A stretch of 64,000 nucleotides of DNA from contig JAYEFR010000082.1 in assembly GCA_034716155.1 (NCBI GenBank), positions 427 to 64,426 of the forward strand. The letters run 5' to 3'. This document shows positions 1,105 to 52,472 of this stretch, in pieces. The notes below the pieces were generated by a model, which saw nothing but the letters and a program-made list of their open reading frames with translations, did not search any database and was not told the DNA's origin. The first letter of the stretch is position 1; every line of letters starts with the position of its first letter. Source of the DNA: Thermodesulfobacteriota bacterium (lineage in GTDB: Bacteria; Desulfobacterota; Desulfomonilia; UBA1062). A program made the translations under genes and the position numbers.

Positions 1105-1753
1105 TAGAAACCCCCTTTTTTATATTACTTCCATATTGCATGAATAGATCCAGACCCAAATATGGATCATCCATAACAATCAAGACATAGCAACCAAGAT
1201 AACCTTTACTATTTAATATAACAATACACTAGCCAAAATCAAGCTCTAACGTGCCGAAGTTGCAGAATTGCCTAAATAACACATGAAGATATGAGCCCGT
1301 ACTCCCCTTGCCTATCACCTTTTGTCATAAACCCCCATGCCTGCAAGGAAGGCACAACCAAGGATGAAACTGCTTTCGGGATGGGGATCCTCTCGCTTAC
1401 ATTTTATCGCTCTTTGATACATCCTTTTGGCTTGCTTACGGGCGCTCCCTAACTCGCCCTTCGGGCTTAAACATAAGGGATCGATTCCCCTTTAAACTCC
1501 GCCAAAGGATGTATTAGCAAATCGCGATAGAAGGCCCGCTCAAGAACCCCCCCATCCCTTAATCTGCACGGACAGATTCCCCCTTTGAAGGGGGCCAGGG
1601 GGATGTTATTGGGGGACCCCCCTGATCGCTGATAGCTGTTTTCATATAAACCTGCATGAGCGGTCCACGCACACAACGAAGGATGAAAATATATGCTGCA
1701 TAAGAAAAGACCTTTGCGCAATTGCTTTCATAGTCATTGCGAGGAGGTTTTTA

Positions 1754-1842
1754 GGCCGATGTAGCAATCCCATTGGTTGCAGGCACTTTGAGATTGCTTC
1801 GCTAAAGCTCGCAATGACAATATGGGTATTCTGCAAAGGCCG
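1754..1842. repeat. Intergenic repeat family C, copy 1 (GTAG-containing REP-like element)
   Basis: GGCCGATGTAGCAATCCCATTGGTTGCAGGCACTTTGAGATTGCTTCGCTAAAGCTCGCAATGACAATATGGGTATTCTGCAAAGG recurs with small changes and one ~50-bp insertion at 7538-7672. Confidence 0.6.
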
Positions 1843-1896
1843 ATGAGGGCATCGGCCCCTACAAAACTTTCTACCTACCTTCACATAAATATGCTC

Positions 1897-1961
1897 GGGC
1901 TGAGAAAAACATCCATCCCCGAAAACCGACCCCTGACCCCCGATACCTGTTTTCATATAAA
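1897..1961 (-). repeat. Intergenic repeat family A, copy 1 (X module only, reverse orientation)
   Basis: Its reverse complement reads TTTATATGAAAACAGGTATCGGGGGTCAGGGGTCGGTTTTCGGGGATGGATGTTTTTCTCAGC, matching the 5' module of the repeats at 21163 and 47004. Confidence 0.6.
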
Positions 1962-2040
1962 GGTGATCACCTATCTTCCAATTGCCAAGAAATAGACATA
2001 TGAGGCAAAGTGCATGGATTAAAGGAGGCCGGAGATAAAG

Positions 2041-5275: not shown

Positions 5276-5321
5276 ACTTTTCTCCTTTCAAAGTTAAAAT
5301 GTTTGATCTTAACTCAACCTC

Positions 5322-6581: not shown

Positions 6582-6610
6582 AAGAATCCCCTATCCTTAA
6601 AGTCAATCTT

Positions 6611-7423
6611 TTAACGAAGGTCACGGGGAGGCCGATCCGGTATTTCAAGGTTGCTGCTCTCTTTGGTTACCAGAGCCGGAAGATATTCAAGTATAGGCAG
6701 ATCAGCCAAGGCATTAACAATATGATACTGCATCGGATTTTGCTCCCAGGTAAGATGCTGCCAGACAACCTCGCCTTGACCGACCCAGACTTCCTTGAAG
6801 ATTCTATCCACGGGGAAGAGGACAGGCTGGCTGATTTCAGCGCCCACGCTGTTAGACTTGGGGATGTACCTCCATCCCATCACGTGGTCTTTACCCTCCA
6901 TGTCTTTTACACCTTGCTTGATCTGTTCTTCTGTCACAGGGCTTAGATTGTCCACCATAAGATCCACGATCTTATGCCCGAAATGGCTTGCCACAGCTTG
7001 CCACTGCCCGCCGATGATACTATGATCCGGGATATCCGCATAAATTTTGGGGACGCCCAGGATCTCCCGACCGGAGATGATGGCGTCTGTAAGATTCTCC
7101 CACCACACAAGGGCATAATAGCCTGTCAAATAGTCAACATCTCCCTTGAAGATTGCCGAGGCATTCACAGCGATCAGGTTATATGAATGCCCGGCCAGCC
7201 AGTCGACCTCCTTGTTCATGCCATAGTAGACACTCACGATCGGCTCTTGACCCACCTCGAAGGGTTCTGGGAGATAAGCGGCCAATTTATCACGATCGGT
7301 AAGATACGAGACCGTTATGCTGGTCACATCGTGGTAGTATCCCGTAGCCTTCCCGATGGGCCTGGGACCGAAATTCCCAGGCATCATGTATGCCTGATTG
7401 GGGTCAAACTTAAACATACGCAA
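6611..7423 (-). CDS. Acetoacetate decarboxylase (ADC)-like family protein
   Basis: 270 aa; length and sequence pattern resemble ADC-fold proteins; located inside a beta-oxidation-like cluster. Confidence 0.45.
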   Translation of the reverse strand: MRMFKFDPNQAYMMPGNFGPRPIGKATGYYHDVTSITVSYLTDRDKLAAYLPEPFEVGQEPIVSVYYGMNKEVDWLAGHSYNLIAVNASAIFKGDVDYLTGYYALVWWENLTDAIISGREILGVPKIYADIPDHSIIGGQWQAVASHFGHKIVDLMVDNLSPVTEEQIKQGVKDMEGKDHVMGWRYIPKSNSVGAEISQPVLFPVDRIFKEVWVGQGEVVWQHLTWEQNPMQYHIVNALADLPILEYLPALVTKESSNLEIPDRPPRDLR

Positions 7424-7537
7424 GTCCTCCTTGGTTTAGTTTTTTTATTCTTAATATCCTTTCTGGCCATTGCTCTTTGAAAAACCAGATGCCCCCCTGA
7501 CTAGATAGGATCTGCCTGTCATTTCGGGAAGGGCGCA

Positions 7538-7672
7538 GGCCGACGTAGCAATCCCATTTTTTTTCAGGCACTTTGAGATTCTTCACTTCGCTTAAGCCCC
7601 TTTCACTTCGTGTAGGTCCCATAGTTTGCCTTCGCTAACGCCCGCAATGACAATATACGTATTATGCAAAGG
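7538..7672. repeat. Intergenic repeat family C, copy 2 (with internal insertion)
   Basis: GGCCGACGTAGCAATCCCATT...GCAGGCACTTTGAGATT...CGCAATGACAATATACGTATTATGCAAAGG; homologous to 1754-1842 with an extra segment that contains TTCACTTCG twice. Confidence 0.6.
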
Positions 7673-7702
7673 TCTCTCTTCGTATCCTTCTCCATCTTCT
7701 AT

Positions 7703-8674
7703 TTAACTATACAGGTGACAGGCTACATAGTGCCCTGGAGTTATTTCTCGCATGAAAGGAACTTTTTTGCTGCATTCGGGCCTGCATACCGGACACCTCG
7801 GGTGAAAAGTGCATCCATGCGGCGGGTTCAGGGGACTCGGCACCTCTCCTTCCAGGCTTACATCCCTGATATCTTCGGGATCCGCCACAGGAACGGACGC
7901 CAGAAGGGCACGCGTGTAGGGATGCTGGGCATTGTAATAAAGCTCCTCACTCGGGGCCAGTTCCACAAGATGACCGAGATACATTACACCAATATGAGTG
8001 CTGACGTGTTCCACCACGGCAAGGTCATGGGCAATAATAAGATATGTAAGACCGAGTTTTTCTTGCAGATCGATCAAAAGGTTCAGTATCTGGGCCTGAA
8101 TTGATACATCCAGGGCTGAGACCGGTTCGTCTAAGATAATCGTCTTGGGTCTCAAGGCCAAGGCACGTGCAATAGCAATCCTCTGTCGCTGTCCCCCGCT
8201 GAATTCATGGGGATAGAGATCCATCCGGAGAGATTCGAGACCTACTAATTCCACGAGTTCTAAAACGCGAGAAAAGGTTTCCTTCTTCGATAACACCTTG
8301 TGAACACGAAGCGGTTCGGAAATGATTTGCCTCACCTTTTTTCTGGGGTTCAACGAACGAAACGGGTCCTGGAATACAGCCTGAATATTTCGCCGGAATT
8401 TAAAAAGCTCCTTTCCATTAAATCCGGTGATGTCCTTTCCCTCGAACATAATCTGCCCGGATGTAGGCGCCTCAAGACCCAAAAGGACATTCGCCGTGGT
8501 GGACTTGCCGCAGCCAGACTCTCCAACCAGCCCAAGGGTCTGTCCCTGAGAGATGCTGAAACTAATATCATCCACGGCCTTGACATAGCCTGTAACCTTC
8601 GAGAAAAATGTACCCTTTGTAACGGGAAAGTACTTCTTGAGATTCATAGCGGAAATGATTGTATTATCTCTCAT
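7703..8674 (-). CDS. oppF: Oligopeptide/dipeptide ABC transporter ATP-binding protein (OppF/DppF)
   Basis: Walker [13 protein letters not shown] signature LSGGQRQR, C-terminal oligopeptide-ABC extension with Cys cluster. Confidence 0.85.
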
Positions 8675-11638: not shown

Positions 11639-13207
11639 TTATTTGACGACCTTTATTGTATTCAGATTGAACAGAAATGATTCATTGGGTGTCCACGTGT
11701 ATTCGATCCGGTCTGACATCGCATAGATCATGTTCAATCCGAACAGGACAATGCCGGTAGCGTCATAGGTCATTATCTCGTGGATCTGCTTTAACATGGC
11801 CAGACGCTTTTTCTCGTCGAGTTCATGGGATTGAGCCTTAACCAGTGCATCCATTTCATCCTTTCTTGGCCTGTTGGTAGCAACAGTATAAGGACTGGTG
11901 CTGAGAACCGACAATAACAGGCGCATGCTGGGGTCTCTTCCTCCAGCCCATGAATACAATCTCAGATGTCCAAGCCTTTTGTCCCTGTTCCTTGTGTAGG
12001 TCGTGGCTGTTCCCTCTTCAAGCTGCTGCAGCTTGACCGTAATTCCTACATCCTTCAAATACTTTTGTATGGCCGCTGCAATTAAAGGTGAGTTGGGCAA
12101 TATGCTTGTATATGTCAGCGTCAGGGGATAACCTGGTTTGTAGGCCGATTTTTTCAGATATTCCCTGGCCTTATCCGGATTAAAATCAAATCTGATGTTC
12201 GGATCATAACCCAGTTCAGACTTGCTCGCATACATATACATCGAATATCCCTGCCCAAGGAATATCTTGTCCACGATCTCCTGCCGGTTAATAGCATGCG
12301 TGATGGCCATCCCAAGATATCTGTCAGACATAACAGGGTCTGTCCGCGGCAGACAAACCATCCCGAACAGGCTCGGGACCTGATCGGTACTCTTGATCTT
12401 GACATATTTGTTACGCTTTAGCCTCTTCACCTGGTGTGGCAAGATGCCGCTTACCAGATCCAGTTCTCCTGTCTCCAGCATGGCCAGCCGGGTGATATCA
12501 TCCGGTACGGTTACAAACTGCAGCCTTTTAAAATCAGGCAGATCTTGCCCGAATCGTTCCTTTAAATACCCCTTCTGAGCATAATTTCTATCAAGCTCTA
12601 AAGTGACGGACTCGCCGATCTTCCGCTCCACAAAGCGAAACAGGCCGCTTCCAACAGGATGCTTTCTGAACTCTTCCCTTCCAACCTTCTCGTAGTACTT
12701 CTTCGAGCATATCCCCACCCACATCAACTCCCTCCAGGCTGCATAGGGCTCCCAGAAGTGAAAGATAAGGTTGTAATCGTCTAAGACCTCGATCTCTTCG
12801 ATCTCATCTATGGGGCCAGCCAGCATATTTGCATTCTTCGGATCCACACACTGCTCATAGGTAAACTTGACATCATGGGCGGTTACAGGATCTCCTGTAT
12901 GGAATCTTGATCCCTTCCGAAGCTTTATCCTGATATCTTTCCCGTTTTCCATGATCTCAAGCTTCTCAGCCAAAAAGGGTATCCTCTCCCCCGTCTTTGG
13001 ATCGACAGTTATCAATGTCTCATGCATACCCAAAATCACGGGCAGATCGTTTCCCAGCTTCATCTCGATGATGTTCACGGTTGAGGGATCATAGCGCATC
13101 CCCACCCTGACGGTGTCATTGCTTTTTGCAAAAACGGATGTAGACAAAAGCAGGACAACAAACAACAAAAGGCCCGCTGCTATAAGACTAAATTGTTTTT
13201 CCCTCAT
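11639..13207 (-). CDS. oppA: ABC transporter substrate-binding protein, family 5 (OppA/DppA-like)
   Basis: The ~520-aa periplasmic SBP probably starts at MREKQFSLIAAGLLLFVVLLLSTSVFA (signal peptide) rather than at the track start 13261. Confidence 0.8.
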   Translation of the reverse strand: MREKQFSLIAAGLLLFVVLLLSTSVFAKSNDTVRVGMRYDPSTVNIIEMKLGNDLPVILGMHETLITVDPKTGERIPFLAEKLEIMENGKDIRIKLRKGSRFHTGDPVTAHDVKFTYEQCVDPKNANMLAGPIDEIEEIEVLDDYNLIFHFWEPYAAWRELMWVGICSKKYYEKVGREEFRKHPVGSGLFRFVERKIGESVTLELDRNYAQKGYLKERFGQDLPDFKRLQFVTVPDDITRLAMLETGELDLVSGILPHQVKRLKRNKYVKIKSTDQVPSLFGMVCLPRTDPVMSDRYLGMAITHAINRQEIVDKIFLGQGYSMYMYASKSELGYDPNIRFDFNPDKAREYLKKSAYKPGYPLTLTYTSILPNSPLIAAAIQKYLKDVGITVKLQQLEEGTATTYTRNRDKRLGHLRLYSWAGGRDPSMRLLLSVLSTSPYTVATNRPRKDEMDALVKAQSHELDEKKRLAMLKQIHEIMTYDATGIVLFGLNMIYAMSDRIEYTWTPNESFLFNLNTIKVVK

Positions 13208-17788: not shown

Positions 17789-19300
17789 CAAAAATACCTC
17801 CAAAGTCGCAATTGATATGATTTTTTAGTTTCTTAGTCTTTTGTAAGCCCTGCAATGTCTCTGACGAGCTGTTTTCGCTCCTCGATATCATACTGCTGTT
17901 AATGGCGATCTGCTCCATGACAGGCGAACCTCCGCCGTGATAGTTGCCCACATTTGCAATACCACCGGTGGCCGAGCAGAGGATGTCTCCCATGTAACGC
18001 CAGAACTGGGCAGCATTCTTTGCGGATATCTTTGGGTTACGCATCACGTACTTCTCCAAAAAATCTTTTGTCTCCGGATTCACCCAGTCCCCCTCATACG
18101 GGAAGGTGGCCGGTATCCCGCCACAGATGTCGGTCAGGATCTCTGCCTCACGGTATACTGCCTCACCTGTCAGGCAGCGACCCACGTTGCAGTAGATGGA
18201 ATTGGGGATATAACTCCCAGGACCATAGGGATAAATCCCATACCAGGCATGTAGACCTCGGGCTTGCCCATGTCAGATGCGGTATAACCGGCTGCATATC
18301 CTAATTCCGTTGTCAAGATAACCTCAGCAAATTTCTTCCTCACGTGCCCGGCCTTCTCAATACCGTTGTATTCAGCGGCAAGAGCAGCTGTTCCGAGAAT
18401 AATGTCACCGATGGCAGGCTTACACCCGGAATAGCTGTGACGATGGAAAAGTGCAAATAACAGCGCCAGCGCCCCGCCGTGCATGTTCTCACCACAGAGG
18501 AACACCCTCTCCCATGGAATAAAACAATTGTCAAAAATTACATAGGAATCTGTCGCACCAGGCATAAACCCGCGGGGGAAATGCTCACGCTTGCGAAAAT
18601 TGTGGACCGTAACCACCTGCTTCATTCCTTCCCAGTCACCAGGTACGGCAAATGCAACCGCATAATCCTTGTCATCAGGCGTCAGCGCCCTTGTCGGAAC
18701 AACCAGGATCTCATCTGCAACAGACGCCTCCGAGATGTGAACCTTACAACCGCTTACCACAATCCCGTCACTCTTTCTCTCCTTGACATGTACATACAGA
18801 TCCGGATCAACCTGCTGGTAGGGCCGCTTCATGCGGTCACCCTTTACGTCTGTCTGCGCGCAACACCCGATCAAATCCTCTGTCTGGAACCGCGTGAGCC
18901 ACTTCTTGAAATTTTCGTGATACTTTGTGGAGCCATTATTCTGCTTGTCTGCCTCATAACTTGCGTTGTATATGGCGTTTGCGGCATCAATCCCCATACA
19001 ACGCTGAATACAACCGCCTACCTTCCTGCAGAGGAAACGGGTCATATCCTGCTTTTTGTGAAGATCATCCGTGTTCTGGTGTATGTGCGTGAAGCGGTTG
19101 ATCGTCTCACCGGTAAGGTGGGACTTTGCAGTCAGCAAATCTGCATTCTCAGGCTTCTGCGCCTCATCGTAAGTCAAACCAATGGTGTCGATAGTAGCCA
19201 TCTGAACCTCATCAGCACGATTGATCTTCTCACCATTAACATAGATGTTGTTCCTCATCTTCCGTAAGGCATCGATATACTGCTCCTTCGTCCTCAACAT
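17781..19300 (-). CDS. abfD: 4-hydroxybutyryl-CoA dehydratase/vinylacetyl-CoA isomerase (AbfD-like), interrupted by an apparent frameshift near 18180-18200 (pseudogene or sequencing error)
   Basis: Track ORFs 18170..19300 (376 aa, MLRTKEQYIDALRKMRNNIYVNGEKI...) and 17781..18185 (134 aa) are in different frames but together resemble the N- and C-terminal parts of AbfD-type flavoenzymes. Confidence 0.7.
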
Positions 19301-19756: not shown

Positions 19757-19925
19757 GCATGAGAATGCTTTTCATCTTTAGTTGTGAGCGCTGGCGCTCA
19801 TGCGCGTTTATATGAAAAAGAAGTCAGGAGTCAAAATTTAGAATCCAAAAGTTAGAATACACGTAATAATCCAATCGGAAGCATTCCGGCTCCTGGATTC
19901 TGAATACTTTTTTATGCCTCGTTGT
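19757..19925 (+). repeat. Intergenic repeat family A, copy 4 (Y+Z modules)
   Basis: ...GTTGTGAGCGCTGGCGCTCATGCGCGTTTATATGAAAAAGAAGTCAGGAGTCAAAATTTAGAA...GTTAGAATACACGTAATAATCCAATCGGAAGCATTCCGGCTCCTGGAT... is near-identical to 47100-47215. Confidence 0.65.
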
Positions 19926-19946
19926 GTCCGGCAGGCCATGGCTATC

Positions 19947-21098
19947 TTACTTTCTCTTGCCAAGTATGTTTCTCGCGATCACTATCCTCATTATCTCGTT
20001 TGTACCTTCATATATCTGGGTGATCTTTGCGTCCCTCATATGCCTTTCCATAGGATACTCTGTTATATATCCATATCCGCCAAGTATCTGCACTCCTTCT
20101 ACGGACGCATCCATTGCAACATCTGAGGCAAACATCTTGGCCTGGGCCGCCTCCTTTTCAAATGGCAACCCTTTGCTCTCAAGCCATGCTGCCTTTAAAA
20201 TAAGCATCTCTGACGCATCTATGCGTGTTGCCATATCAGCGAGCTTAAACTGGATTGCCTGAAAACTTTCCAATGGTTTTCCAAACTGGACTCTCACCTT
20301 AACATATTCCAAGGCCTCCTCCAGGCAGGCCTTGGCGATCCCTAAGGCCTGCGATGCAATACCTATACGGCCGGAATCCAGGGTGGTGAGCATCTGTCTG
20401 AATCCAGACCCTGGATCGCCAATGATAGCGTCTTTGGGGATCATGGCATCTTCAAACACCAGTTCTGCAGTACCAGACGCCCTGATCCCCAATTTGTCTT
20501 CAACCTTACCAACAGAAAAACCTTTGGTTTCCTCTAGGTCAACAACAAATTGAGAAATGCCACGATATCCCTTTTCTTTATCCGTTATTGCGGCAAGTAT
20601 GGCATATTTTGCAATATTCCCATTCGTGATAAATCTTTTCTCACCATTTACAATCCATGTGTCTCCATCCAATACAGCAGTGGTCTTCATCCCGGACGGA
20701 TCAGATCCCGCATTTGCCTCTGTAAGTCCATAACACCCATGGGCCTGTCCGGATGCAACCGGGGTTAGAAACTCTTTTTTTTGTTCTTCGGAACCAAACT
20801 TCAAGACAGGAAACCCATAAAGCGAGTTGTTTACTGACATAATCACGCCTGTACCGGCACATGCCCTTGATATTTCTGTAAGGATAAGCGCGTATGCAAC
20901 ATAATCCATATCTGCACCACCATACCCGGATGGTATGGCTACTCCCATAAATCCCTGCTCGCCCATCTTCTTCAGTATTTCGTCCGAATGCTGATGACTC
21001 GCATCTAATTCAGCGGCAATAGGCTTAATCTCCTGATCTGCAAACCTTCCGGCCATGTCCTGAACCATCTTGTGTTCTTCACTCAACGCAAAGTCCAT
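19947..21098 (-). CDS. bcd: Short-chain (butyryl-) acyl-CoA dehydrogenase
   Basis: Classical ACAD layout with C-terminal ...YEGTNEI... motif. Start preferred at MDFALSEEHK (21098), where a GGGGG RBS lies 5 nt upstream. Confidence 0.85.
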   Translation of the reverse strand: MDFALSEEHKMVQDMAGRFADQEIKPIAAELDASHQHSDEILKKMGEQGFMGVAIPSGYGGADMDYVAYALILTEISRACAGTGVIMSVNNSLYGFPVLKFGSEEQKKEFLTPVASGQAHGCYGLTEANAGSDPSGMKTTAVLDGDTWIVNGEKRFITNGNIAKYAILAAITDKEKGYRGISQFVVDLEETKGFSVGKVEDKLGIRASGTAELVFEDAMIPKDAIIGDPGSGFRQMLTTLDSGRIGIASQALGIAKACLEEALEYVKVRVQFGKPLESFQAIQFKLADMATRIDASEMLILKAAWLESKGLPFEKEAAQAKMFASDVAMDASVEGVQILGGYGYITEYPMERHMRDAKITQIYEGTNEIMRIVIARNILGKRK

Positions 21099-21162
21099 AT
21101 AATCCCCCTGTAATATAATTATTCCCACAGGGTATTATCATAATCCTATAATCAGATTCAAG

Positions 21163-21288
21163 TTTATATGAAAACAGGGGTCGGGGATCAGGGGCCGGTT
21201 TTCAGGGATGGATGTTTTTCTCATCCTGGGCATATTCTCATGCTTGGTTGTGGGTACCTGCGCTCATGCGGGTTTATTAGATTGGATA
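21163..21288 (+). repeat. Intergenic repeat family A, copy 2 (X+Y modules)
   Basis: TTTATATGAAAACAGGGGTCGGGGATCAGGGGCCGGTTTTCAGGGATGGATGTTTTTCTCATCC...GCGCTCATGCGGGTTTAT. Confidence 0.65.
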
Positions 21289-28965: not shown

Positions 28966-31900
28966 CTATTCAAGATCAAGATTGATAGTTTCTTTCTCTA
29001 CTTCAGGATACACCTTGTCAATTGCCTTCTGAACTTCAATTGTTTTTTTAAGGGATGTAACAACCTTGCAGTAATGTTTTATATCCTCAAGGGATAGCAC
29101 CTTATCCTTTCTATCTTTCAGCCATTTACTGCAAACTTGATACCCACCGATCTGATATTCCCAGCAATCTTTCGGAATCCCTTCAAAATACTGGTTTTGA
29201 TTGATATAGATACATTCTTGCTTTTCATCATATCTTAACTTCTCGACCTTTTCGTCACCACTTCCCTGAAATTTGGCAAGGGGAGGATCAAGTTCTTGTG
29301 ATCTCAATAAATGCAAATCAACCAATTCTTTTCCATATTCAGCCATCCTGTTAAATATCTTGCAATCTCTTGTAAATGGAATTCTCGGGAAACCTCCCTT
29401 TAGAAACTCGGCATATTGAGTACGGTAGATATTCGAATAGAGAATTGCGTAGATGTAGTAGAAAATCTCTTCTGGTGTAATATTGGTAGAACAGACATTC
29501 TTGTCTGTTTCCTCTCTGTCTGTTTCTCCGTTGAAATACCAACCATGATACCCCCATGGACTTTCTGTTAATGCTCTTTTCACTGGATTATTCAGCATAT
29601 AATTCATTTTCTCGTTCAACTCGTTTTGATCCCTTATAATTCTATCAAAAGATTCCTCTTGCCAGATAGAGCCAGAAGTCCCCCTTTTTAAGTTGAGTTG
29701 TCGGGCTGATGCCCCCTTAATACCTCTCATTATTCTACTAAGATTATATTCTTCCTTCGGGGTCAACAAAAGATGAACATGATCTGGCATTACAATGGCT
29801 GCAATAAGTGTATAAAATTTTCCATTGCCCTCTATAATGTGTTTCAAAACCAGTTTCTGTTCCTCGATAGATAGATCTCCTTGGGCTGTTCTGAAAGTAA
29901 CAAAATATGTTGCATCCTTCAATGTCCAGTGTGGGAGATGTCTTCTTGTGATTTGAAGGTCATTGGTAGAACAGACATTTTTGTCTGTTTCCTCCAAGGT
30001 AGAACAGACATTTTTGTCTGTTTCCTCCAAATTAGTGTCAGACAAGAATGTCCGACCTACCGGACCTACCGCCGGACCTGCACTTTTACAAATGTCGGAT
30101 AACGCCTTGAAAATCTTTGGATTTATATTGGGTTGCCTTTTCTCTGCCTTTTCCATGTGGCCAATGAGCTCTTTCCTGTCTGTGTAGGGGTAGAGGTAGA
30201 GGGGAGCTAAGCTCATAATTCCTCTGTTGCTATAAAATGACCGATTGTCGATAATATTTTGGCTAATAAAAACATGGCTATATGTCTCATTTAATGCTAC
30301 CTGACGCATAAAGACAAGTCCTATATTCCCCTGCATCATGTGACGCATGACCTTTTTGCGTGAACGTTCAATAACTGCATCGTGATAGAAAATCCATCGA
30401 ATATCAAAGGGCCGATATAAAATCTTTGTGATAGAATCTCCCCATTTTTTATCCTTTCTCACCTCTTCTCGTGCAGCTTCCAATTTCCAGTTTGATTTAT
30501 CCTTTAACTCAAAGGTTTGTCTTACAAGGCCATCGGGCATATTTTTATCGCAGAAGGTCCTAATCCGCTGTTTAAGCTTTTCTTTATCAGAGTCTATTAC
30601 AAATTTGTCTCTTGATGTTACCACCCCCACACTATTAAGTGGAAATATCTCAGTTATTTTAGGCCATCTTTCATAATACTCTAAAAGCCTTTCATCCCTT
30701 GGCACAAAAAGATAAAATTCAGATTTTGGGGAGAGCTGATTCCATTCAATTGTTTCTACATTATTCTCTAAAAGCCACTCGTATTTATTTTCTCGCATCC
30801 CCCAAATCTCTGAATGATAGACCTTGCATTCGCTCTTTTTCTCTTGATTTTTTATACAGAGTGCAATGGCTACACCCTGCTGGATGTCAAAGACATTTTC
30901 ATCCTTAGAGCCGTCAGGGCTCTTCTCTTTTTTCAGGCTATTGCCGTGTAGATCAAGAATATAGATTTCATTGAAACTGTTCATCACTGATTGGCGCATA
31001 CCTCTAAAGGTGGGATTATCAAGATAGCTATGATTGGTAATATATCCTAATACTCCTTCACCTGCCTGATCAATCTTCCACTGGGCAAACCGGATGAATT
31101 TCACATAATCGTCCTGAAGCCATTTTGGATTCTTTTCTCCAAGGGGTTTACCATCAACAAACTTGTAATCCCCAATAAGCTTTCCTATCCACGTTTTTAT
31201 CTTTCTTCTCTTTGCTATACCCTTTTTTGTTTTTATTGTGATGTACCTTTCACTTGCATTTGCAGAATGCCCTGAATACGGCGGATTGCCGAGGATTACC
31301 AGTATAGGCTGTTCCTTTTTAACTTTACCAGCCAGATGAGATTCCTCAGAAAGAGATGCCATAAACGGCAACCCTGTTTCAGCAAGTTCCTCCATCTCCA
31401 ATGTATTGGTGAGGTATAGTTTGAATCTGTCATCTTCTTTGAGTCTATACCCAAGCTCTTCTAAGAGAAAAGACATCTTCAAATAGCCCACTGCATAGGG
31501 AGCCATCATCAACTCAAAGGCATAAAAATTCTTAAGGATATGTTCTTTAATAAAATTCCCTTCCCCCCCTTCGCCATATTTAAAGACAAATTCCTCAACT
31601 GCCTGTTTTGCTGCCTCAGCTAGAAAGGTGAGGGTGCCTGCTGCTGGATCTAATACAGTAACCGAGCTGATTGCAAATCCCTCCCGTTTATCAAAGTGCT
31701 GCTTCAAGATGTGATGCAAAGAACGGACAATATAGGATACCACTGATTCTGGCGTATAATAGACACCTCTTTTCTCTCTTGTCTTTGGGTCATATTCGGC
31801 CAAAAAGGTCTCATAGAAATGAACAATAGGATCTTTGCCCCTTCCTTCATGAAAATACGTATGGAGAATTTCATTTACATCAGTAACCGCTAAGACCTCG

Positions 31901-32745
31901 GATATATCATCTATAATCCACTCCATTTGTTTGGGTAAGTCTTCAAGGGAGACAAAACTGAATACATCTCGTAAGATCCCAATAGTGTGTGGAATGTTGT
32001 CGTATGCAAGTTTTCTATTAAATCCATTTTCAGAGCGGGTACGGGCAGCAAAGAGACCATAGGTAATGGTCTGGGAATAGAGATCGGCAAACTCTTCTTT
32101 AGAAAGAGTACCAATAAGATATTTCCTGAATGCCTCATAAAATCCAAAGATGTGACCTTTTCCTTCCTCTTCTTTTAACTCCTGAGCAATGACTTCATCC
32201 TTTAAAAAACGTGTCCTCTTTGCCAATTCTATTGCCAAAGTTTTCGCACTATAGACCTTTGGAAGAGAAAAGGAGAAAAACTTTTCAAGCAATTTGATAA
32301 AATCTGCCTGTTTTTCAACAGGAGGTATCATTTTAAGTTTTTGTGCAACAAATGGCCTGCCGATGAGGACTTGATCTGCCAGGGTGCCATCACGATACAG
32401 CCTAAACTCAAAGAAATTGGTTAGTATCAGATTGGGGAAAGTTTTGCGATAGCGTTTTAACTGCTCGGAATTTTCTATCCTGTCTAAATTCTCAACCATT
32501 GGTGATTTTGCTTCAATGTATCCAACAATATGCTGGGTTCCGTCCCAGACTCTGAAATCAGGATTGCCGGCTTCGGTCTTTTTTGGCAAGATTGTAATAT
32601 AAATATTCCTTTTGCCGACTGAATCTGAATATTCTTTTAATAGACCTTTGAGGACAGAATAATAACTTTCTTCCCTTGCATCCCCCCGAGTTGCAATCTC
32701 AGATATTTTTCTCAAATACGACTTTAGCATCATGTCTTCTTTCAC
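28966..32745 (-). CDS. Single-polypeptide type IIG/IIL (MmeI-like) restriction-modification enzyme, carrying an in-frame RAYT/IS200-like transposase insertion in its C-terminal region
   Basis: 1259-aa continuous ORF. N-terminus has a PD-(D/E)xK-like motif NPDFRVW...IVGYIEAKS. Gamma-class N6-adenine MTase motifs follow: YYTPESVV, VLDPAAGTLTFL (motif I) and ILGNPPYSG (motif IV). The C-terminal ...EEIFYYIYAILYSNIYRTQYAEFLKGGFPRIPF... module is typical of large type IIG/PglX-like MTases. The aa ~850-1040 insert has Y1 HuH motifs (see mobile_element). Confidence 0.7.
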   Translation of the reverse strand: MKEDMMLKSYLRKISEIATRGDAREESYYSVLKGLLKEYSDSVGKRNIYITILPKKTEAGNPDFRVWDGTQHIVGYIEAKSPMVENLDRIENSEQLKRYRKTFPNLILTNFFEFRLYRDGTLADQVLIGRPFVAQKLKMIPPVEKQADFIKLLEKFFSFSLPKVYSAKTLAIELAKRTRFLKDEVIAQELKEEEGKGHIFGFYEAFRKYLIGTLSKEEFADLYSQTITYGLFAARTRSENGFNRKLAYDNIPHTIGILRDVFSFVSLEDLPKQMEWIIDDISEVLAVTDVNEILHTYFHEGRGKDPIVHFYETFLAEYDPKTREKRGVYYTPESVVSYIVRSLHHILKQHFDKREGFAISSVTVLDPAAGTLTFLAEAAKQAVEEFVFKYGEGGEGNFIKEHILKNFYAFELMMAPYAVGYLKMSFLLEELGYRLKEDDRFKLYLTNTLEMEELAETGLPFMASLSEESHLAGKVKKEQPILVILGNPPYSGHSANASERYITIKTKKGIAKRRKIKTWIGKLIGDYKFVDGKPLGEKNPKWLQDDYVKFIRFAQWKIDQAGEGVLGYITNHSYLDNPTFRGMRQSVMNSFNEIYILDLHGNSLKKEKSPDGSKDENVFDIQQGVAIALCIKNQEKKSECKVYHSEIWGMRENKYEWLLENNVETIEWNQLSPKSEFYLFVPRDERLLEYYERWPKITEIFPLNSVGVVTSRDKFVIDSDKEKLKQRIRTFCDKNMPDGLVRQTFELKDKSNWKLEAAREEVRKDKKWGDSITKILYRPFDIRWIFYHDAVIERSRKKVMRHMMQGNIGLVFMRQVALNETYSHVFISQNIIDNRSFYSNRGIMSLAPLYLYPYTDRKELIGHMEKAEKRQPNINPKIFKALSDICKSAGPAVGPVGRTFLSDTNLEETDKNVCSTLEETDKNVCSTNDLQITRRHLPHWTLKDATYFVTFRTAQGDLSIEEQKLVLKHIIEGNGKFYTLIAAIVMPDHVHLLLTPKEEYNLSRIMRGIKGASARQLNLKRGTSGSIWQEESFDRIIRDQNELNEKMNYMLNNPVKRALTESPWGYHGWYFNGETDREETDKNVCSTNITPEEIFYYIYAILYSNIYRTQYAEFLKGGFPRIPFTRDCKIFNRMAEYGKELVDLHLLRSQELDPPLAKFQGSGDEKVEKLRYDEKQECIYINQNQYFEGIPKDCWEYQIGGYQVCSKWLKDRKDKVLSLEDIKHYCKVVTSLKKTIEVQKAIDKVYPEVEKETINLDLE
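29485..30030 (-). mobile_element. RAYT/IS200-IS605-family Y1 (HuH) transposase module flanked by GTAG-hairpin REP sequences, inserted in-frame inside the RM gene
   Basis: Hairpin GGTAGAACAGACAttcttGTCTGTTTCCTC at 29485-29515, followed by a partial reiteration through ~29530. Tandem copies GGTAGAACAGACAtttttGTCTGTTTCCTCCAA sit at 29965-29996 and 29998-30029. Between them the translation RRHLPHWTLKDATYFVTFRT...IVMPDHVHLLLTP...RGTSGSIWQEESFDRIIRD...NYMLNNPVKRAL carries Y1 transposase hallmarks (HuH = HVH, Q..F.D/R.IR, Y...NPV). No ATG start of its own; each hairpin is translated as (E)ETDKNVCST(N) within the host ORF. Confidence 0.7.
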
Positions 32746-37443: not shown

Positions 37444-37599
37444 TTTTGTTCTCCTTTATGCTTTTGATTTTTACAATAGAAAATCCTATATGATTGGGCC
37501 GGTGGGGGCTTCTTTATATGAAAATACCTTTAGTCGGTCAGGCTTTATGGGCCTTTCGAGCCGTATGCTGATATGTATTAGGCGATGTCTCTGCCGGAT

Positions 37600-41890: not shown

Positions 41891-43766
41891 AAGGCCGGCA
41901 CATCCAAGAGCTCTCTTCTTGGTTATACTTGCTGCATTAATATTTGGTATCTACTATAATACCCTCGATAATGCCCCAACCAACTGGGATGATCCAGCAC
42001 TCTTTAGCAGACCCACCATCCACAAGATATCCATTGATAACCTAAAAGAAGTCCTGTCCTTCCATCCAGGCTCTACATACCAACCGATTAGGGATATATC
42101 ATATATGATAGACTTTAGCCTTTGGAAAAATAAGGCTGTCTTCGGCATGCATCTGCACAGCATGCTCCTCTATTATCTAATGATAGTTTTTTGCTGGGTC
42201 TTCCTTTTGAAACTGCTGCAAGCCTTTGGTATCGAAGAGGAAAAGGCCTTCCTATGGGCAGTATTATCATCTCTCATATTTGCCGTGCACCCTGTACATG
42301 TGGAGAGTGTGACATGGTTATATGCAAGAAAAGAACCTCTGCTTGGTATCTTTACGTTTTTGAGTCTGATATCGTTTTTAAAGGCAATATCCGGTAGAAA
42401 AAGACATTATATCCTCAGCATTGTCTTCCTTATTCTGGGAGCCCTCTCCAAACCCACCGCCTTGATGATCCCTTTAATAATGTTTGGTATTGACTTATGC
42501 CTTTATGTAAAAGACAAAGGAACGTCATACTGGAAAAAAAGGCTCCTTGTATATATCCCTCTAGTAATCATTGTAGCCCCCATGATGTTCAGGCTCATAT
42601 CCATGATGTCTGCAGTTGGTGGCATAAAACCCTACCATGGCGGCTCATTTGGGACCAATCTGCTGGCTGTATCTCAAATCCTGGCAAGTTATATCAAGCT
42701 TATCTCCCTAACCATCAATTATGCAGCTGACTATCCTATAAGGCTTTATGCAGATCCCCACCTATGGCAGGCATGGGTTTTTGTAGTGGTAAATATCTTC
42801 TTTATTGCCTCTGGTGTATGGGCATTCTTTAAAGGTAGGTATATATATCCCATCTTTGTGGGTTGGTATTATATATTTTTGCTGCCCGTATCACATATCT
42901 TTCCTATATCTCAAATACTGACAGATAGGTATGCACTGCTTCCCTCTTTGACCTGGTGTGTATTTATAGCCTATATCCTTAGCAAACTGTGGGATATACG
43001 TATAAATGTATGGAGGCTGTCACCGGACTTGCTAAGGCTTGTCTCTATTGCTTTGCTATCCATAATTATATGTTCATACAGTGCGATGACTATAAGGCAA
43101 AATGGCATCTGGCAAAATTCACTTTCACTGTGGGAAGACACCCTGGCAAAATACCCAAATTCAAGTCCTGCCAATGTAAATCTTTCTGTCTTATACATAA
43201 AACTGGGGAGATACAAAGAAGCTCAAGAACTTTGCGTAAATGCAATCAAAGAGCTCCCTTATGATTATCTGGCCATAAGCAATCTGGCGCTTGCTCAAAT
43301 GATGATGGAACAATACGATAACGCCATACATAACTACAAACAGGCGCTAAAACTAAAGCATGATCTCTCCAAGGCAAAATTGGGGCTGGCTAATGCCTAC
43401 TGGAAAGAAAGAGACTTTATAAATGTATATCAAGTATACAAAAATATAACCACCTCTTGTAATGTAAACAGAGCAAGATATGGCGCCCTTATCTATTACA
43501 GGCTTGGCTTTAGTGCATGGAAATTAAATAAAAAAGAACAGGCATTAATATATTACAAAAAGGCGAGCGTTCCGTCTTCCTGTCCACCCGTAGTCTTAAA
43601 AGACCTGGCAGATGCCTACACAAGCATGGGCGAAGTGCCTGAGGCACTAGAATGCTATAAAAGGGTATTAAAGACTGAAACAAACAAAAAACTAAAGAGT
43701 TATGCAAAGGACCGGATAAAGATGCTTTCTCATAAACACCCATACCTGCAAGGCTCTCACAACTAA
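41865..43766 (+). CDS. Polytopic membrane protein with C-terminal TPR repeats (TMTC/PMT-like putative glycosyltransferase, DUF1736-type)
   Basis: N-terminal ...YYNTLDNAPTNWDD..., ~10 TM segments, then a TPR-rich C-terminus. The start overlaps the J-domain gene by ~26 nt and may lie further downstream. Confidence 0.6.
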   Translation: MEDFGKRIKRPAHPRALFLVILAALIFGIYYNTLDNAPTNWDDPALFSRPTIHKISIDNLKEVLSFHPGSTYQPIRDISYMIDFSLWKNKAVFGMHLHSMLLYYLMIVFCWVFLLKLLQAFGIEEEKAFLWAVLSSLIFAVHPVHVESVTWLYARKEPLLGIFTFLSLISFLKAISGRKRHYILSIVFLILGALSKPTALMIPLIMFGIDLCLYVKDKGTSYWKKRLLVYIPLVIIVAPMMFRLISMMSAVGGIKPYHGGSFGTNLLAVSQILASYIKLISLTINYAADYPIRLYADPHLWQAWVFVVVNIFFIASGVWAFFKGRYIYPIFVGWYYIFLLPVSHIFPISQILTDRYALLPSLTWCVFIAYILSKLWDIRINVWRLSPDLLRLVSIALLSIIICSYSAMTIRQNGIWQNSLSLWEDTLAKYPNSSPANVNLSVLYIKLGRYKEAQELCVNAIKELPYDYLAISNLALAQMMMEQYDNAIHNYKQALKLKHDLSKAKLGLANAYWKERDFINVYQVYKNITTSCNVNRARYGALIYYRLGFSAWKLNKKEQALIYYKKASVPSSCPPVVLKDLADAYTSMGEVPEALECYKRVLKTETNKKLKSYAKDRIKMLSHKHPYLQGSHN

Positions 43767-43932
43767 GGATGAAAATATATCTAGCCCTGAGTGGTTTTTT
43801 AGTTTTGTACATATACTTGTCAGTAGTCCATTGCTCGTTGTCCGTTGTAAAACCTTCAGATATAATTATCACCTCCCAATATACCACTGACAACTAACTA
43901 CGGACAACGGACGAGTATTTTTTATATAAACA
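43765..43932 (+). repeat. Intergenic repeat family B, copy 1 (MITE/REP-like, begins right after the TPR gene stop)
   Basis: AAGGATGAAAATATATCTAGCCCTGAGTGG...CTTGTCAGTAGTCCATTGCTCGTTGTCCGTTGT...CCACTGACAACTAACTACGGACAACGGACGAGTATTTTTTATATAAACA. Confidence 0.65.
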
Positions 43933-46992: not shown

Positions 46993-47003
46993 CCCATCAA
47001 CTG

Positions 47004-47226
47004 TTTGTATGAAAATAGGGGTCGGGGATCAGGGGTCGGTTTTCAGGGATGAATGTTTTTCTCATCCCGAAAATATTTTCATCGTTAGTTGTGGCCGGTA
47101 GGCCATGGCAGTTTATATGAAAAAGAAGTCAGGAGTCAGAATTCAGAAGTTAGGATACACGTAATAATCCAATCGGAAGCATTCCGGATTCTGGATACTT
47201 TTTCATGCTTCGTTTATATGAAAATA
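47004..47226 (+). repeat. Intergenic repeat family A, copy 3 (most complete: X+Y+Z modules)
   Basis: TGTATGAAAATAGGGGTCGGGGATCAGGGGTCGGTTTTCAGGGATGAATGTTTTTCTCATCC...GTTTATATGAAAAAGAAGTCAGGAGTCAGAATTCAGAAGTTAGGATACACGTAATAATCCAATCGGAAGCATTCCGGATTCTGGAT...CGTTTATATGAAAATAGC. Confidence 0.65.
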
Positions 47227-47593
47227 GCAATCAGCATTAAATCAAAATAAAAAAATTTAGTGCTTACATAGAAAACATGAGTGAATATCTAGGTTTTCTA
47301 TCAGAGGGGGTCGAATTTTAAAGGAAAAGTTAGATTTAGCAAATTATGAGTTGTCTACAAAATGTAGAAAACCTTAGAATATGAGCTTATGACAATGTAA
47401 ATCAATATTATGTGGAATACCATAAAAAGTTTAGCGATCTTAGTGCATTAACTTTTGTATCTCTCTATTAAGGGGAATTTTTTATTTGGTGCTAAATGAC
47501 GAAAATCGACCGAGTCGAAGATTGACGTCATCTTGTGAAAGTAAGATACATGGCAACATATACTGTGGTAAACAAATTTTATATGGGGGGCAT

Positions 47594-48940
47594 ATGAACA
47601 AACAACCAGGTCTTGGACATATAAAAGACTTAATACAGACAAAAGTAAAAAATCCCTCAGAAAAACCGCTGATAGATCAAATGGATATCTGCATACAGGA
47701 TGGGTCTGCTATGGTATATTGCCCAAGCCCTTTTGTTCTCAATTATATACATCAACATCACAAAGACATTATTATAAATGAGATACAAAAACTCCTTGGT
47801 AAATCTGCGGACATAGAATTCTCTGTGCGCTCTAATAAAGGCTCCAATAAAAAGTCATCTTCTATAAACAAGCCCATACAAATGGTTCTCCCCTCTGCTG
47901 CTAAGCCCTCACCTGTACGAGGGCTCAATCCAAAATTTACATTTGAGGAATTTGTGGTTGGTAAGTGTAATGCCTTTGCATATGAGGCAGCAATGGCGGT
48001 GTCTGACGAGGCTCTAAGCAAATACAGTCCATTATACTTCTATTCGGATACAGGCCTTGGGAAGAGTCATATTGCGCACGCTATTGGGAATAAGGTGATA
48101 AAGTCCGAGGCAAATATTACGGTAAGGTATACCACAGCTCAAGATTTCTCCGCAGAATATGTGTATTCTGTTAGAAATAATCGTATTGATCAATTCAAAC
48201 GCACGTATAGTAGCAAGTGTGATGTCTTTTTTATTGATGATGTACATCTATTCAAAAACAAAGAAAAGACTCAAATGGAGCTAAGCTATATACTAGATGA
48301 ATTTATGAGTAATGATAAACAGGTTGTCCTTTCGGGATTCAGACCTCCGGCATCAATCCCCTATATGGATAAAGGCCTAAAATCAAGATTTTCTTCTGGA
48401 TTGGTAATAGATATAAAGAGGCCTGACAGACAAACCAGGGCCAATATTGTAAGACGTAAGGCATCAAAAGAGGGTATATCTCTTCCGGATGATATAGTAG
48501 GCTTTATTAGCGAGAATATAAAGAATAATATCAGAGAACTAGAAAGTGCAGTGCTGACCGTATCTGCTATGAGTTCTTTGATGAAAAGAGAAATCACATT
48601 GGATATGGTAAAAGAACTCCTGGAAGGAACACTTGAAAGGCGGGAAAGGATATCCATCCCGTTTATCCAGGGATTTGTGGCAAAAAACTTTGGGATCTCA
48701 AAGGAGCAATTAATCTCCCCGTCAAGAAAGAAAGGGATTGTATATCCAAGGCAAGTCGCAATATTTCTATGCAGGCACTACACAAAAGAGCCCTTACAGG
48801 TTATCGGCCAGACCTTTTCCAGAAGGCATTCCTCTATTATACACTCTCTAGAGGTAATCGATGAAATGTACACCGGAAATTTGAAGACAAAAAGAGAGAT
48901 CGATTTCCTTATGGAAACATTAGAAAATGCCGTACTCTAA
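47594..48940 (+). CDS. dnaA: Chromosomal replication initiator protein DnaA
   Basis: Domain III NPKFTFEEFVVGKCN, Walker A GDTGLGKSHIAHAIGN, Walker B-like DVFFIDDVH, sensor IRELESAV; domain IV ...YPRQVAIFLCRHYTKEPLQVIGQTFSRRHSS.... Start preferred at MNKQPGLGHIKDL (47594, G-run RBS); the 36-codon extension to 47486 looks non-coding. Confidence 0.9.
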   Translation: MNKQPGLGHIKDLIQTKVKNPSEKPLIDQMDICIQDGSAMVYCPSPFVLNYIHQHHKDIIINEIQKLLGKSADIEFSVRSNKGSNKKSSSINKPIQMVLPSAAKPSPVRGLNPKFTFEEFVVGKCNAFAYEAAMAVSDEALSKYSPLYFYSDTGLGKSHIAHAIGNKVIKSEANITVRYTTAQDFSAEYVYSVRNNRIDQFKRTYSSKCDVFFIDDVHLFKNKEKTQMELSYILDEFMSNDKQVVLSGFRPPASIPYMDKGLKSRFSSGLVIDIKRPDRQTRANIVRRKASKEGISLPDDIVGFISENIKNNIRELESAVLTVSAMSSLMKREITLDMVKELLEGTLERRERISIPFIQGFVAKNFGISKEQLISPSRKKGIVYPRQVAIFLCRHYTKEPLQVIGQTFSRRHSSIIHSLEVIDEMYTGNLKTKREIDFLMETLENAVL

Positions 48941-48943
48941 GGC

Positions 48944-49122
48944 CTTTATATGAAAATACTTGTCCGTTGTCCGTGGTTAGTTGTCAGTGGTATATTGGAA
49001 GGAGATCATCCTATTTGGAGGGTTTATTACAACGGACAACGAGCAAAAAAACTACTGACAGGTATAAGTACAGAACTAAACGATCGCTCAGGGCAAAATA
49101 CATTTTCATTCTTCGTTGTGTC
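48944..49122 (-). repeat. Intergenic repeat family B, copy 2 (inverted relative to copy 1; begins right after the dnaA stop)
   Basis: Its reverse complement aligns base-for-base with 43765-43932, including the GTCCGTTGTCCG and TTGTCAGT cores and TTTATATGAAAATAC at one end. Confidence 0.65.
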
Positions 49123-49147
49123 CAAAAGGACATGCAGGTTAGATTAG

Positions 49148-52094: not shown

Positions 52095-52472
52095 ATGAAT
52101 ATATTTCAAGAGACTACTATAGCAGATAAAATTATGATCGCTTCTATCCTTACCACCTGTTTGATCTGGGCCATATTTTTATTCAAAGGAACATCCCTTG
52201 GGCAGGAAGTGGAAATCTATAACATGAACGGCCTCTTAGGGATCTATTCACTTGATCAAGATACCACTATCAACGTGCCAGGCCCGCTTGGATATACTGT
52301 GGTGGCAATAAAATCCTGTAAGGTATCTGTGAAGTCATCTCCGTGTCCTAATAAGATATGTGTGCTCACCGGCAAAATAGAACATACAGGAGAGGGCCTT
52401 ATATGTATCCCCAATAAAGTAAATGTAATAATAAAAGGCAAAAAGCAAAAATTTGATACACTATCCTATTAA
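52095..52472 (+). CDS. NusG-domain-II (DUF1312)-containing small membrane-anchored protein
   Basis: N-terminal TM, then ...CPNKICVLTGKIEHTGEGLICIPNKVNVIIKG... typical of the NusG_II family. Confidence 0.5.
   Translation: MNIFQETTIADKIMIASILTTCLIWAIFLFKGTSLGQEVEIYNMNGLLGIYSLDQDTTINVPGPLGYTVVAIKSCKVSVKSSPCPNKICVLTGKIEHTGEGLICIPNKVNVIIKGKKQKFDTLSY

Follow-up and report, generated by a model that had tools for sequence, protein, structure and literature searches.

Small TTTAT-delimited, hairpin-ended repeats of Desulfobacterota, most likely one superfamily of non-autonomous mobile elements

Insertion sequences of the IS200/IS605 type and their non-autonomous derivatives, the palindrome-associated transposable elements (PATEs), move by "peel-and-paste" transposition, in which the enzyme is an HUH (histidine-hydrophobic-histidine) nuclease with a single catalytic tyrosine (Y1). 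Here we compare with these and other systems a set of repeats in a 64,000-nucleotide stretch of a Thermodesulfobacteriota genome (assembly GCA_034716155.1, contig JAYEFR010000082.1, positions 427 to 64,426 of the forward strand), hereafter the window. The analysis centres on the copy at 47004-47226, which a first-pass annotation of the window had described as one of four copies of a composite family A, resembling miniature inverted-repeat transposable elements (MITEs) or repetitive extragenic palindromic sequences (REPs) and built of three modules, X, Y and Z. All four copies (1897-1961, reverse; 19757-19925; 21163-21288; 47004-47226) were verified by reading the sequence.

Several features of the described systems serve as reference points. 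In IS608 the hairpin foot and the right-end boundary are 10 nt apart, and a guide tetranucleotide 5' of the foot pairs with the cleavage site (PMC3201880). The pentamer TTTAT is the established target, or target-adjacent motif (TAM), of the IS605-family element ISGst2 (bioRxiv 10.1101/2023.03.14.532601). REPs are sequences of 20-40 nt with a conserved GTAG and an imperfect palindrome; TnpA-REP requires a mismatch in the stem, and bacterial interspersed mosaic elements (BIMEs) in tandem at one locus are locally alike (PMC3333891).

Family A, a second family (B) and several isolated fragments of the window most likely belong to one superfamily of small, non-coding, non-autonomous mobile repeats. 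Unrelated bodies (X, Z, B and those of long elements) lie between common ends, the orientation of the elements is independent of the flanking genes, and they occupy unrelated intergenic sites across many genomes. Read on one strand, the layout is TTTAT, then the left boundary, then ATGAAA(A/G)-body-(Y)TTTCAT-NN-TTNGTT-(GTG-variable hairpin-CAT)-G-NNN-GTTTAT, then the right boundary; it was derived from the window copies, each on its own strand, together with 64 complete copies of other genomes. The body is a hairpin, often long and near-perfect, closed by ATGAAA/TTTCAT, and this closing stem is lengthened with compensatory changes (ATGAAAATA/TATTTTCAT in X, ATGAAAAAG/CTTTTTCAT in Z and ATGAAAGTC/GACTTTCAT in other elements). 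Element size is about 75-400 nt, and neighbouring elements are joined head-to-tail with a single TTTAT common to both at each junction.

This layout changes how the modules are to be read. The first-pass annotation had them occurring in different combinations. Y is not a free, shuffled module but the common 3' terminal module of every element (renamed U), and what had looked like combinations are better read as tandem insertions of separate elements, each with its own 3' module. X, Z, B and the two long elements of 1327-1961 are distinct elements whose bodies differ and whose ends are common, and the flagged copy at 47004-47226 is X, Z and a 5' stub in tandem. Family B does share the terminal motif, as had been proposed, since the same two ends are seen at 43925-43732 (minus strand) and 48950-49141. 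The fragments near 1640 and 1680 are also real: there one element ends and another, 319 nt long (1645-1327, minus strand), begins. The one near 37505 is a 5' stub at 37513. The elements of the window are as follows, with bit scores from a covariance model built from U.

47004..47008, plus strand: TTTGT, a variant of the preceding TTTAT pentamer (putative target or left cleavage motif)
47009..47116, plus strand: element X, 108 nt (U model 66 bits, E = 4e-12), made up of 5' arm ATGAAAATA, G-rich repeats, an inner hairpin, 3' arm TATTTTCAT (47074-47082), a linker, the U hairpin GTG-GCCGGTAGGC-CAT (47091-47106) and 10 nt ending in GTTTAT (47111-47116)
47117..47217, plus strand: element Z, 101 nt, directly after the TTTAT of X, with the heptamer leader GAAGTCAG GAGTCAG AATTCAG AAGTTAG
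47218..47235, plus strand: 5' stub of a third element (ATGAAAATAGCAATCAGC), resembling the start of the long element at 1645
21163..21277, plus strand: TTTAT and a solitary X (21168-21277) with complete U, between the divergent bcd and major facilitator superfamily (MFS) genes
19769..19811, plus strand: U (hairpin GAGCGC-TGG-GCGCTC; 60 bits) ending a decayed element
19812..19949, plus strand: element Z with a degenerate U (hairpin TGTCCGGCAGGCCA, tail GGCTATCTTA in place of GNNNGTTTAT)
1646..1961, minus strand: TTTAT (1961-1957) and a 311-nt element with an X-type 5' half, a GTCATTGCGAGC-type module and U (1692-1637; 62.5 bits)
1327..1645, minus strand: 319-nt long element in tandem, with a TCAGC-type heptamer leader, a core of about 205 nt (1566-1364) and U (1373-1318; 42.8 bits)
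43732..43930, minus strand: family B, with a TTTAT variant, ATAAAAAATAC, TTGTCCG heptamers and U at 43778-23 (42.3 bits)
48945..49141, plus strand: family B directly after the dnaA stop codon, with the tail GGTTAG for GGTTTAT (U 33.3 bits)
37513..37542, plus strand: isolated 5' stub (TTTATATGAAAATACCTTTAGTCGGTCAGG)

Element X of the flagged copy folds into two hairpins under DNA parameters (z = -5.6). The Z element behind it ends in CTTTTTCATGCTTCG immediately before TTTAT: its GTG-hairpin segment has been precisely lost between two GTT repeats at about 47212, which can be written CTTC-GTT(GTG...GNNN-GTT)TAT with the lost part in brackets. What is left gives a partial U match (47197-47226, 31 bits) and a weak fold (z = -1.9). 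The stub at 47218..47235 is matched by 24 nt that are 92% complementary to 1628-1651. At the other Z site, the TTTAT of the U at 19769..19811 is the insertion point of the Z element that follows, and the solitary X has its U at 21232-21286 (35.9 bits). The right flanks of this X (21278-21285) and of the family B copy (49140-49147) both start with TAGATTRG, which may be a coincidence or belong to a preferred target.

The copies are alike, and their motifs are far more frequent than chance would allow. By repeat detection, the X copies at 21162-21253 and 47003-47094 are 87% identical, each is 87% complementary to 1887-1966, and the Z copies at 19826-19901 and 47124-47199 are 86% identical. The motif TTTATATGAAAA, allowing at most one mismatch, occurs at 12 sites in the window against 1.14 expected, a count reached in 0 of 100 shuffles, and the 3' motif TTTTCATNNTTNGTTGTG, which was derived from the copies, occurs at 8 sites against 0.28 expected. 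Clustering within one 64-kb window could in itself come from a local segmental duplication or from chance similarity confined to the region. However, the motif counts far exceed those of shuffles, the flanks of the copies are unrelated, and hundreds of copies are found in other genomes and metagenomes. In particular, bodies of the X, Z, B and long-element types recur, 75-92% identical and with unrelated surroundings, in two other metagenome-assembled genomes (MAGs), AUK176 and SRP068000_co4_477. The family is therefore not confined to the window but is a dispersed repeat, as the first-pass annotation had supposed, and a purely local origin, which these copies already refute, has practically no chance of being right.

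An exact-pattern scan over one genome per species gave at least 105 stretches. Counted with the covariance model, U occurs 8 times in the 64-kb window (about one per 8 kb), 170 times in 665 kb of genome loci and 27 times in 96 kb of metagenome loci. Among the matches listed, nearly all are from Desulfobacterota (Desulfobacteraceae, Desulfobulbaceae, Desulfonema magnum, Desulfamplus and Syntrophus/Syntrophales), and the others listed include one MAG each labelled Omnitrophota, Bacteriovoracaceae and Cohaesibacter. Many of the carriers are bacteria of the sulfate-reducer type. Pattern matches in an archaeon, in Pollutiaquabacter and in an Ignavibacteriaceae MAG were set aside as chance, having no hairpin and no support from the covariance model. 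Carriage by phages or plasmids was considered and rejected: two viral pattern matches are AT-rich chance hits without a hairpin, and a BLAST search of plasmids returned only heptamer elements of Nostoc.

Pfam assignments bear out the gene context given by the first-pass annotation, in which abfD-like, bcd, MFS, rdgB (Ham1) and dnaA genes flank copies. The flagged copy is surrounded by genes for RNase PH, Ham1/RdgB and DnaA (47486-48940). Around the Z array lie a 4-hydroxybutyryl-CoA-dehydratase-type gene (HpaB-like, 18170-19300) and the acyl-CoA dehydrogenase gene (19947-21128), the MFS gene starts at 21365, a radical S-adenosylmethionine (SAM) gene comes after family B, and a sodium:solute symporter gene lies downstream of the 1327-1961 cluster. 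The copies had also been called strictly intergenic, which holds with respect to Pfam-supported genes, save that the end of one Z element (19947-19949) overlaps the bcd stop codon by 3 nt. A mechanical open reading frame (ORF) at 1642-2052 (minus strand) overlaps elements and is probably spurious.

At the right end, CATG and GTTTAT are separated by exactly 3 nt in 119 of 121 copies, which places the boundary 10 nt from the hairpin foot, and the bases 5' of the foot are NGTT (TTNGTT). On the left, TTTAT stands directly before the 5' arm in 33 of 54 elements without having been imposed, near variants of it stand there in most of the others, and each of positions -5 to -1 is conserved in 42-48 of the 54.

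The first-pass annotation had suggested an analysis of covariation across copies, and this gave a strong signal at the U hairpin. In an alignment of 98 distinct U sequences the flanks are invariant and the stem interior is variable, with 91% of cells paired and with 45, 32 and 16 double changes at pairs 22-36, 23-35 and 24-34. The covariation score is 0.222 against 0.100 when shuffled and was reached in 0 of 500 shuffles; all slid registers score far lower, and a separate count agrees. The U hairpin is under structural selection, and its foot pair is an invariant G-T mismatch.

Covariation alone cannot separate RNA from single-stranded DNA, so it is equally compatible with a family of structured RNAs (small RNAs, as the first-pass annotation had offered as an alternative, or cis-regulatory ones) whose genes have multiplied and in which U and the 205-nt core act as RNA. 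Such a family would also account for elements that fold better than shuffles, for a core that forms a conserved rod of 58 predicted pairs with a compensating variable tip, and for a U that looks terminator-like under a permissive scan. Against it, U has no true T-tract, promoters are not in excess, and the elements are oriented almost at random with respect to nearby genes (same/same 26, opposite/same 25, opposite/opposite 20, same/opposite 9). Rfam gave no match over the window at the gathering score or around the elements at E <= 5, and a search of 1200-2100 at E <= 10 returned two chance-level matches far under the gathering score. Stubs, tandem chains and positions at contig ends are, moreover, typical of mobile DNA. 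We therefore consider an RNA family very unlikely and a DNA-level repeat much more likely, while transcription and an RNA role for some of the cargo are possible.

For the way in which the elements move, we tentatively prefer HUH-type single-strand transposition in trans, with a confidence somewhat short of even. An enzyme acting in trans would cut and join the element in single-stranded (or hairpin-extruded) form and would read the hairpin foot and the flanking bases; an HUH/Y1-type nuclease is the most plausible candidate, as for IS200/IS605 and PATEs. Insertion would take place 3' of TTTAT, and the target would not be duplicated. Because every element ends in TTTAT, resident copies would themselves be targets, which would give rise to chains such as X-Z-stub at 47004-47235 and those of up to 6 units elsewhere. 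The first-pass annotation had proposed that one enzyme acts on several non-autonomous elements; conserved ends with variable bodies fit that idea, but no recombinase or transposase was found.

The resemblance to IS200/IS605 elements and PATEs lies in several features at once. The ends are strand-asymmetric rather than terminal inverted repeats, the right end has a subterminal hairpin that is read by shape and, as in IS608, a boundary 10 nt downstream of the hairpin foot, and on the left there is a fixed pentamer, TTTAT, which is also the target of ISGst2. There are likewise short derivatives that encode no protein, and insertion in tandem beside resident copies. In contrast, "MITE" in the classical sense, as in the first description, does not apply, because classical MITEs have terminal inverted repeats at both extremities and a variable target-site duplication. 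Here about 40 nt of U lie beyond the 3' arm of the ATGAAA/TTTCAT inverted repeat, and the flanking repeat is always TTTAT.

Several observations weigh against HUH-type transposition as we have set it out. No tnpA, tnpB or other transposase gene bounded by these ends was found in about 860 kb of loci. The 5' hairpin starts right after TTTAT, whereas the left subterminal hairpin of IS608 lies about 19 nt in, and this large boundary hairpin is family-specific, sharing only an RTG...CAT foot with the 3' hairpin. The NGTT 5' of the U foot cannot form Watson-Crick pairs with TTAT or TTTAT, so there is no apparent guide/cleavage-site complementarity of the IS608 kind. No replication-strand bias of the IS200/IS605 type was seen, in small samples: the window, whose GC skew is uniformly negative, has 7 plus-strand and 3 minus-strand elements, and in D. 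magnum the plus strand carries all five loci (64 kb to 7.6 Mb, to either side of position 0). The flank after terminal elements often resembles NNGAAA or ATG, which a target consisting of TTTAT only does not predict. No empty site was recovered from bcd orthologues, the fetched loci or a metagenome pattern search, so exact boundaries and the absence of duplication are only inferred: the bcd orthologues (85-86% identical) are not syntenic with the window, the fetched loci include no orthologous pairs, and the exact empty-site pattern had 0 metagenome matches. Finally, the window copies are only about 87% alike and give no sign of recent activity. In favour of mobility, one presence/absence difference was seen, in that an element adjoins a NusG-II-domain gene in MAG AUK176 and none lies beside the orthologous gene of the window (52095-52472), which is the only hint of this kind.

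The Y1 genes that were found, namely those of Desulfonema REP-associated tyrosine transposases (RAYTs) and a fragment in the window, also count against that reading, because they are flanked by different repeats. The RAYT genes of D. magnum and D. ishimotonii (181 aa, Y1_Tnp; locus L063 at 5586-7650 and locus L109 at 3700-5000) stand in long tandem arrays of a repeat of about 42 nt (GGAGTGCAAAAATTNTTTTTTGCA...), and homologues with 56-82% identity occur in many metagenomes. This clade was considered as the partner of U and rejected, as it is flanked by a different, TGCAAAAA-type repeat. A hidden Markov model (HMM) of 120 RAYTs, run over the loci, added to these Y1 genes only a fragment in a Type ISP gene of the window. 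The ORF in question (28966-32745, minus strand, 1259 aa) has the Pfam domains N6_Mtase and Type_ISP_C of the Type ISP restriction-modification type and holds a 52-aa Y1_Tnp (IS200-like) fragment at aa 978-1029 (about 29658-29811). Canonical GTAG-hairpin REPs (GGTAGAACAGACATTTTTGTCTGTT) bracket the fragment; they lie at 29485, 29965 and 29998, and a further copy, at 30039, is inverted. The region 29485-30061 resembles a decayed RAYT/REP unit that sits within the Type ISP gene and leaves its reading frame unbroken.

These genes bear on a second explanation, in which U would be a REP-like sequence, not an insertion-sequence derivative, kept over the long term by a RAYT-type Y1 enzyme whose gene is single-copy and inherited vertically and which has roles at the level of the host. 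U shares much with REPs and BIMEs: short intergenic hairpins with compensatory variation, conserved bases 5' of the covarying hairpin (compare GTAG and the palindrome), and an invariant G-T mismatch at the foot that recalls the stem mismatch needed by TnpA-REP. The copies are numerous, intergenic, old and conserved across orders or a phylum, hairpins are often identical inside an array and different among arrays, as in tandem BIMEs, and RAYT genes are present in these lineages. However, the conserved bases are GTT-GTG and never GTAG, the units are always direct and never inverted as in BIMEs and REP doublets forming hairpins (REPINs), and a TTTAT-delimited unit with a variable cargo hairpin is not a REP feature. 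All three Y1/RAYT loci examined (L063, L109 and the window remnant with its GGTAGAACAGACA-type REPs) have other repeats, with no U adjoining. We regard this explanation as rather unlikely.

Other gene families were also searched for a partner of the elements. All-versus-all clustering of 1206 ORFs from 105 loci, combined with Pfam, showed only housekeeping families (ATP-binding cassette (ABC) ATPases, kinases and enoyl-CoA hydratases) to be recurrent. Among the 150 ORFs at most 1.5 kb from a U, Pfam identified only two integrase-family ORFs, one XerD-like and one IntI-like, neither of them with an array. Group II intron reverse transcriptase/maturase genes are present in three U loci (L026 at 4076-5479, L045 at 7194-8000 and L075 at 5496-6593), kilobases from U; this is probably a coincidence in intron-rich genomes.

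Arrays reach 6 units with a period of about 95-100 nt, all on the same strand, and copies are frequent at contig ends. Adjacent U modules within arrays have an identical hairpin in 8 of about 29 pairs, even where the bodies differ (examples come from loci L014, L035, L059, L074, L082 and L106), and one body family bears different hairpins across arrays. The identity within arrays suggests local duplication, conversion or exchange at conserved junctions.

A third explanation is cassette-like site-specific recombination. The junction TTTTCAT...hairpin...GTTTAT-ATGAAAA, as it would exist in a circle, would be a folded site like the attC of integrons, and tiny non-coding cassettes would be swapped between TTTAT and ATG by a tyrosine or other recombinase. 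As in integrons, the arrays are direct, and a unit ends in a folded imperfect palindrome, variable in sequence and conserved in structure, whose last bases start the next unit; the 3' end holds most of the site and the 5' end only ATGAAAA. The TTTTCAT/ATGAAAA inverted repeats flanking the U hairpin (helix 1) are 76% paired. Flanks after terminal elements often start with ATG or NNGAAA, as if both sides of a crossover mattered, and the same body with different hairpins, one array with a single hairpin over different bodies and the precise loss of the hairpin segment between GTT repeats at 47212 could be read in the same way. On the other hand, there are no RYYYAAC/GTTRRRY core boxes and no intI/attI platform; the cassettes are 40-300 nt long without ORFs, and the arrays are short, scattered mini-arrays. 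No integrase adjoins any array, the two Phage_integrase ORFs near U being the XerD-like and IntI-like ones, and the IntI-like gene stands beside a single U, on the wrong side. We judge a cassette system distinctly unlikely.

A broader possibility, also unlikely in our view, is that the elements represent an unrecognised class of hairpin-defined mobile DNA. Its enzyme would belong neither to the canonical TnpA clade of IS200/IS605 nor to the RAYTs, but either to a new clade of HUH enzymes or to the recombinases, with a folded attC-like junction as substrate. Its non-coding cargo would be exchangeable, including the core of about 205 nt as a possibly functional guide-like or protein-binding RNA or single-stranded DNA.

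That core (1566-1364, within the 1645-1327 element) folds better than shuffles (z = -3.6) and has no match in Rfam. A pattern derived from it found 15 metagenome stretches, with the core followed by U in every case; the core-bearing loci are L015, L033, L105 and L118-L132. Cores align as the rod described above, with compensating tip variants GCCC-GAA-GGGC, GCCTGCC-TTT-AGGCAGGC and GCCTACC-AAA-GGTAGGC. The leaders in front of them vary, and one of these leaders is the 5' half of X (in L130, L129 and L125). The short X consists of a leader, the last 20 or so nt of the core, and U, with the joint between ...TTTTTCTCA and TCCCGAAAA..., and comparison with long elements carrying the X 5' half, the core and U identifies it as an internal-deletion derivative of a longer master element of about 330-400 nt.

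The 5' part of nearly every body has 3-10 tandem heptamers whose sequence is specific to the family (GGGGTCN, RAGTCAG, TTGTCCG, NNTCAGC, GTGTTRG or CTCAAAG). In the window they run at 47020-47040, 47124-47152, 48960-48990 and 1630-1645 (minus strand), with further runs in L017, L040, L063, L101 and other loci, and some are G-quadruplex-like, e.g., (GGGTGTT)n in D. magnum (L101). Heptamer repeats of filamentous bacteria are known, among them the unexplained TAACTGA repeats of Beggiatoaceae (PMC4679880). The likeness to these and to short tandemly repeated repetitive (STRR)-type sequences lies in the family-specific heptamer runs of the 5' leaders, but no description of them has TTTAT/U termini. 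On Nostoc plasmids (NZ_CP026682.1 at 13024-13071; NZ_CP040288.1) a heptamer-armed hairpin resembles the Z leader (GAATTCAG AAGTCAG...) at 82-91% over 34-50 nt, and the U model found nothing at the plasmid locus (L117). This likeness hints at a possible link with cyanobacterial STRR-type repeats.

Two further repeats were seen in the window. The GTCATTGCGAGC...GAAGCAATC module, which lies inside one element (1700-1850, minus strand), also occurs at 7519-7676, upstream of 7703-8674, and at L090 3030-3140, and is another dispersed repeat. The ORF at 5322-6581 (minus strand) contains a direct repeat of 109 nt, whose two copies (5344-5452 and 5695-5803) are 86% identical and 351 nt apart.

The kind of element is ordinary, a small non-autonomous repeat, and the architecture is unusual in its IS608-like right end, a cargo hairpin at the left boundary, cassette-like chains and the 205-nt core. 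The motif is not described in Rfam or in the literature searched, so the element type is apparently undescribed so far; among published elements, PATEs, REP/BIME sequences and the heptamer repeats of filamentous bacteria come closest. If single-strand transposition in trans is correct, the flagged locus (47004-47235) would represent roughly 230 nt of hairpin-rich DNA of foreign origin in the interval from rdgB to dnaA. The responsible enzyme, once identified, could prove to be a single-strand transposase of divergent specificity or to belong to a new type of recombination directed by hairpins. A noticeable fraction of the intergenic DNA consists of these elements, which cause assembly breaks in many MAGs of Desulfobacterota and lie in promoter and terminator regions of core genes, for instance upstream of dnaA and in the stretch from bcd to abfD. 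Their annotation would help assembly, binning and regulatory interpretation in these environmentally important bacteria.

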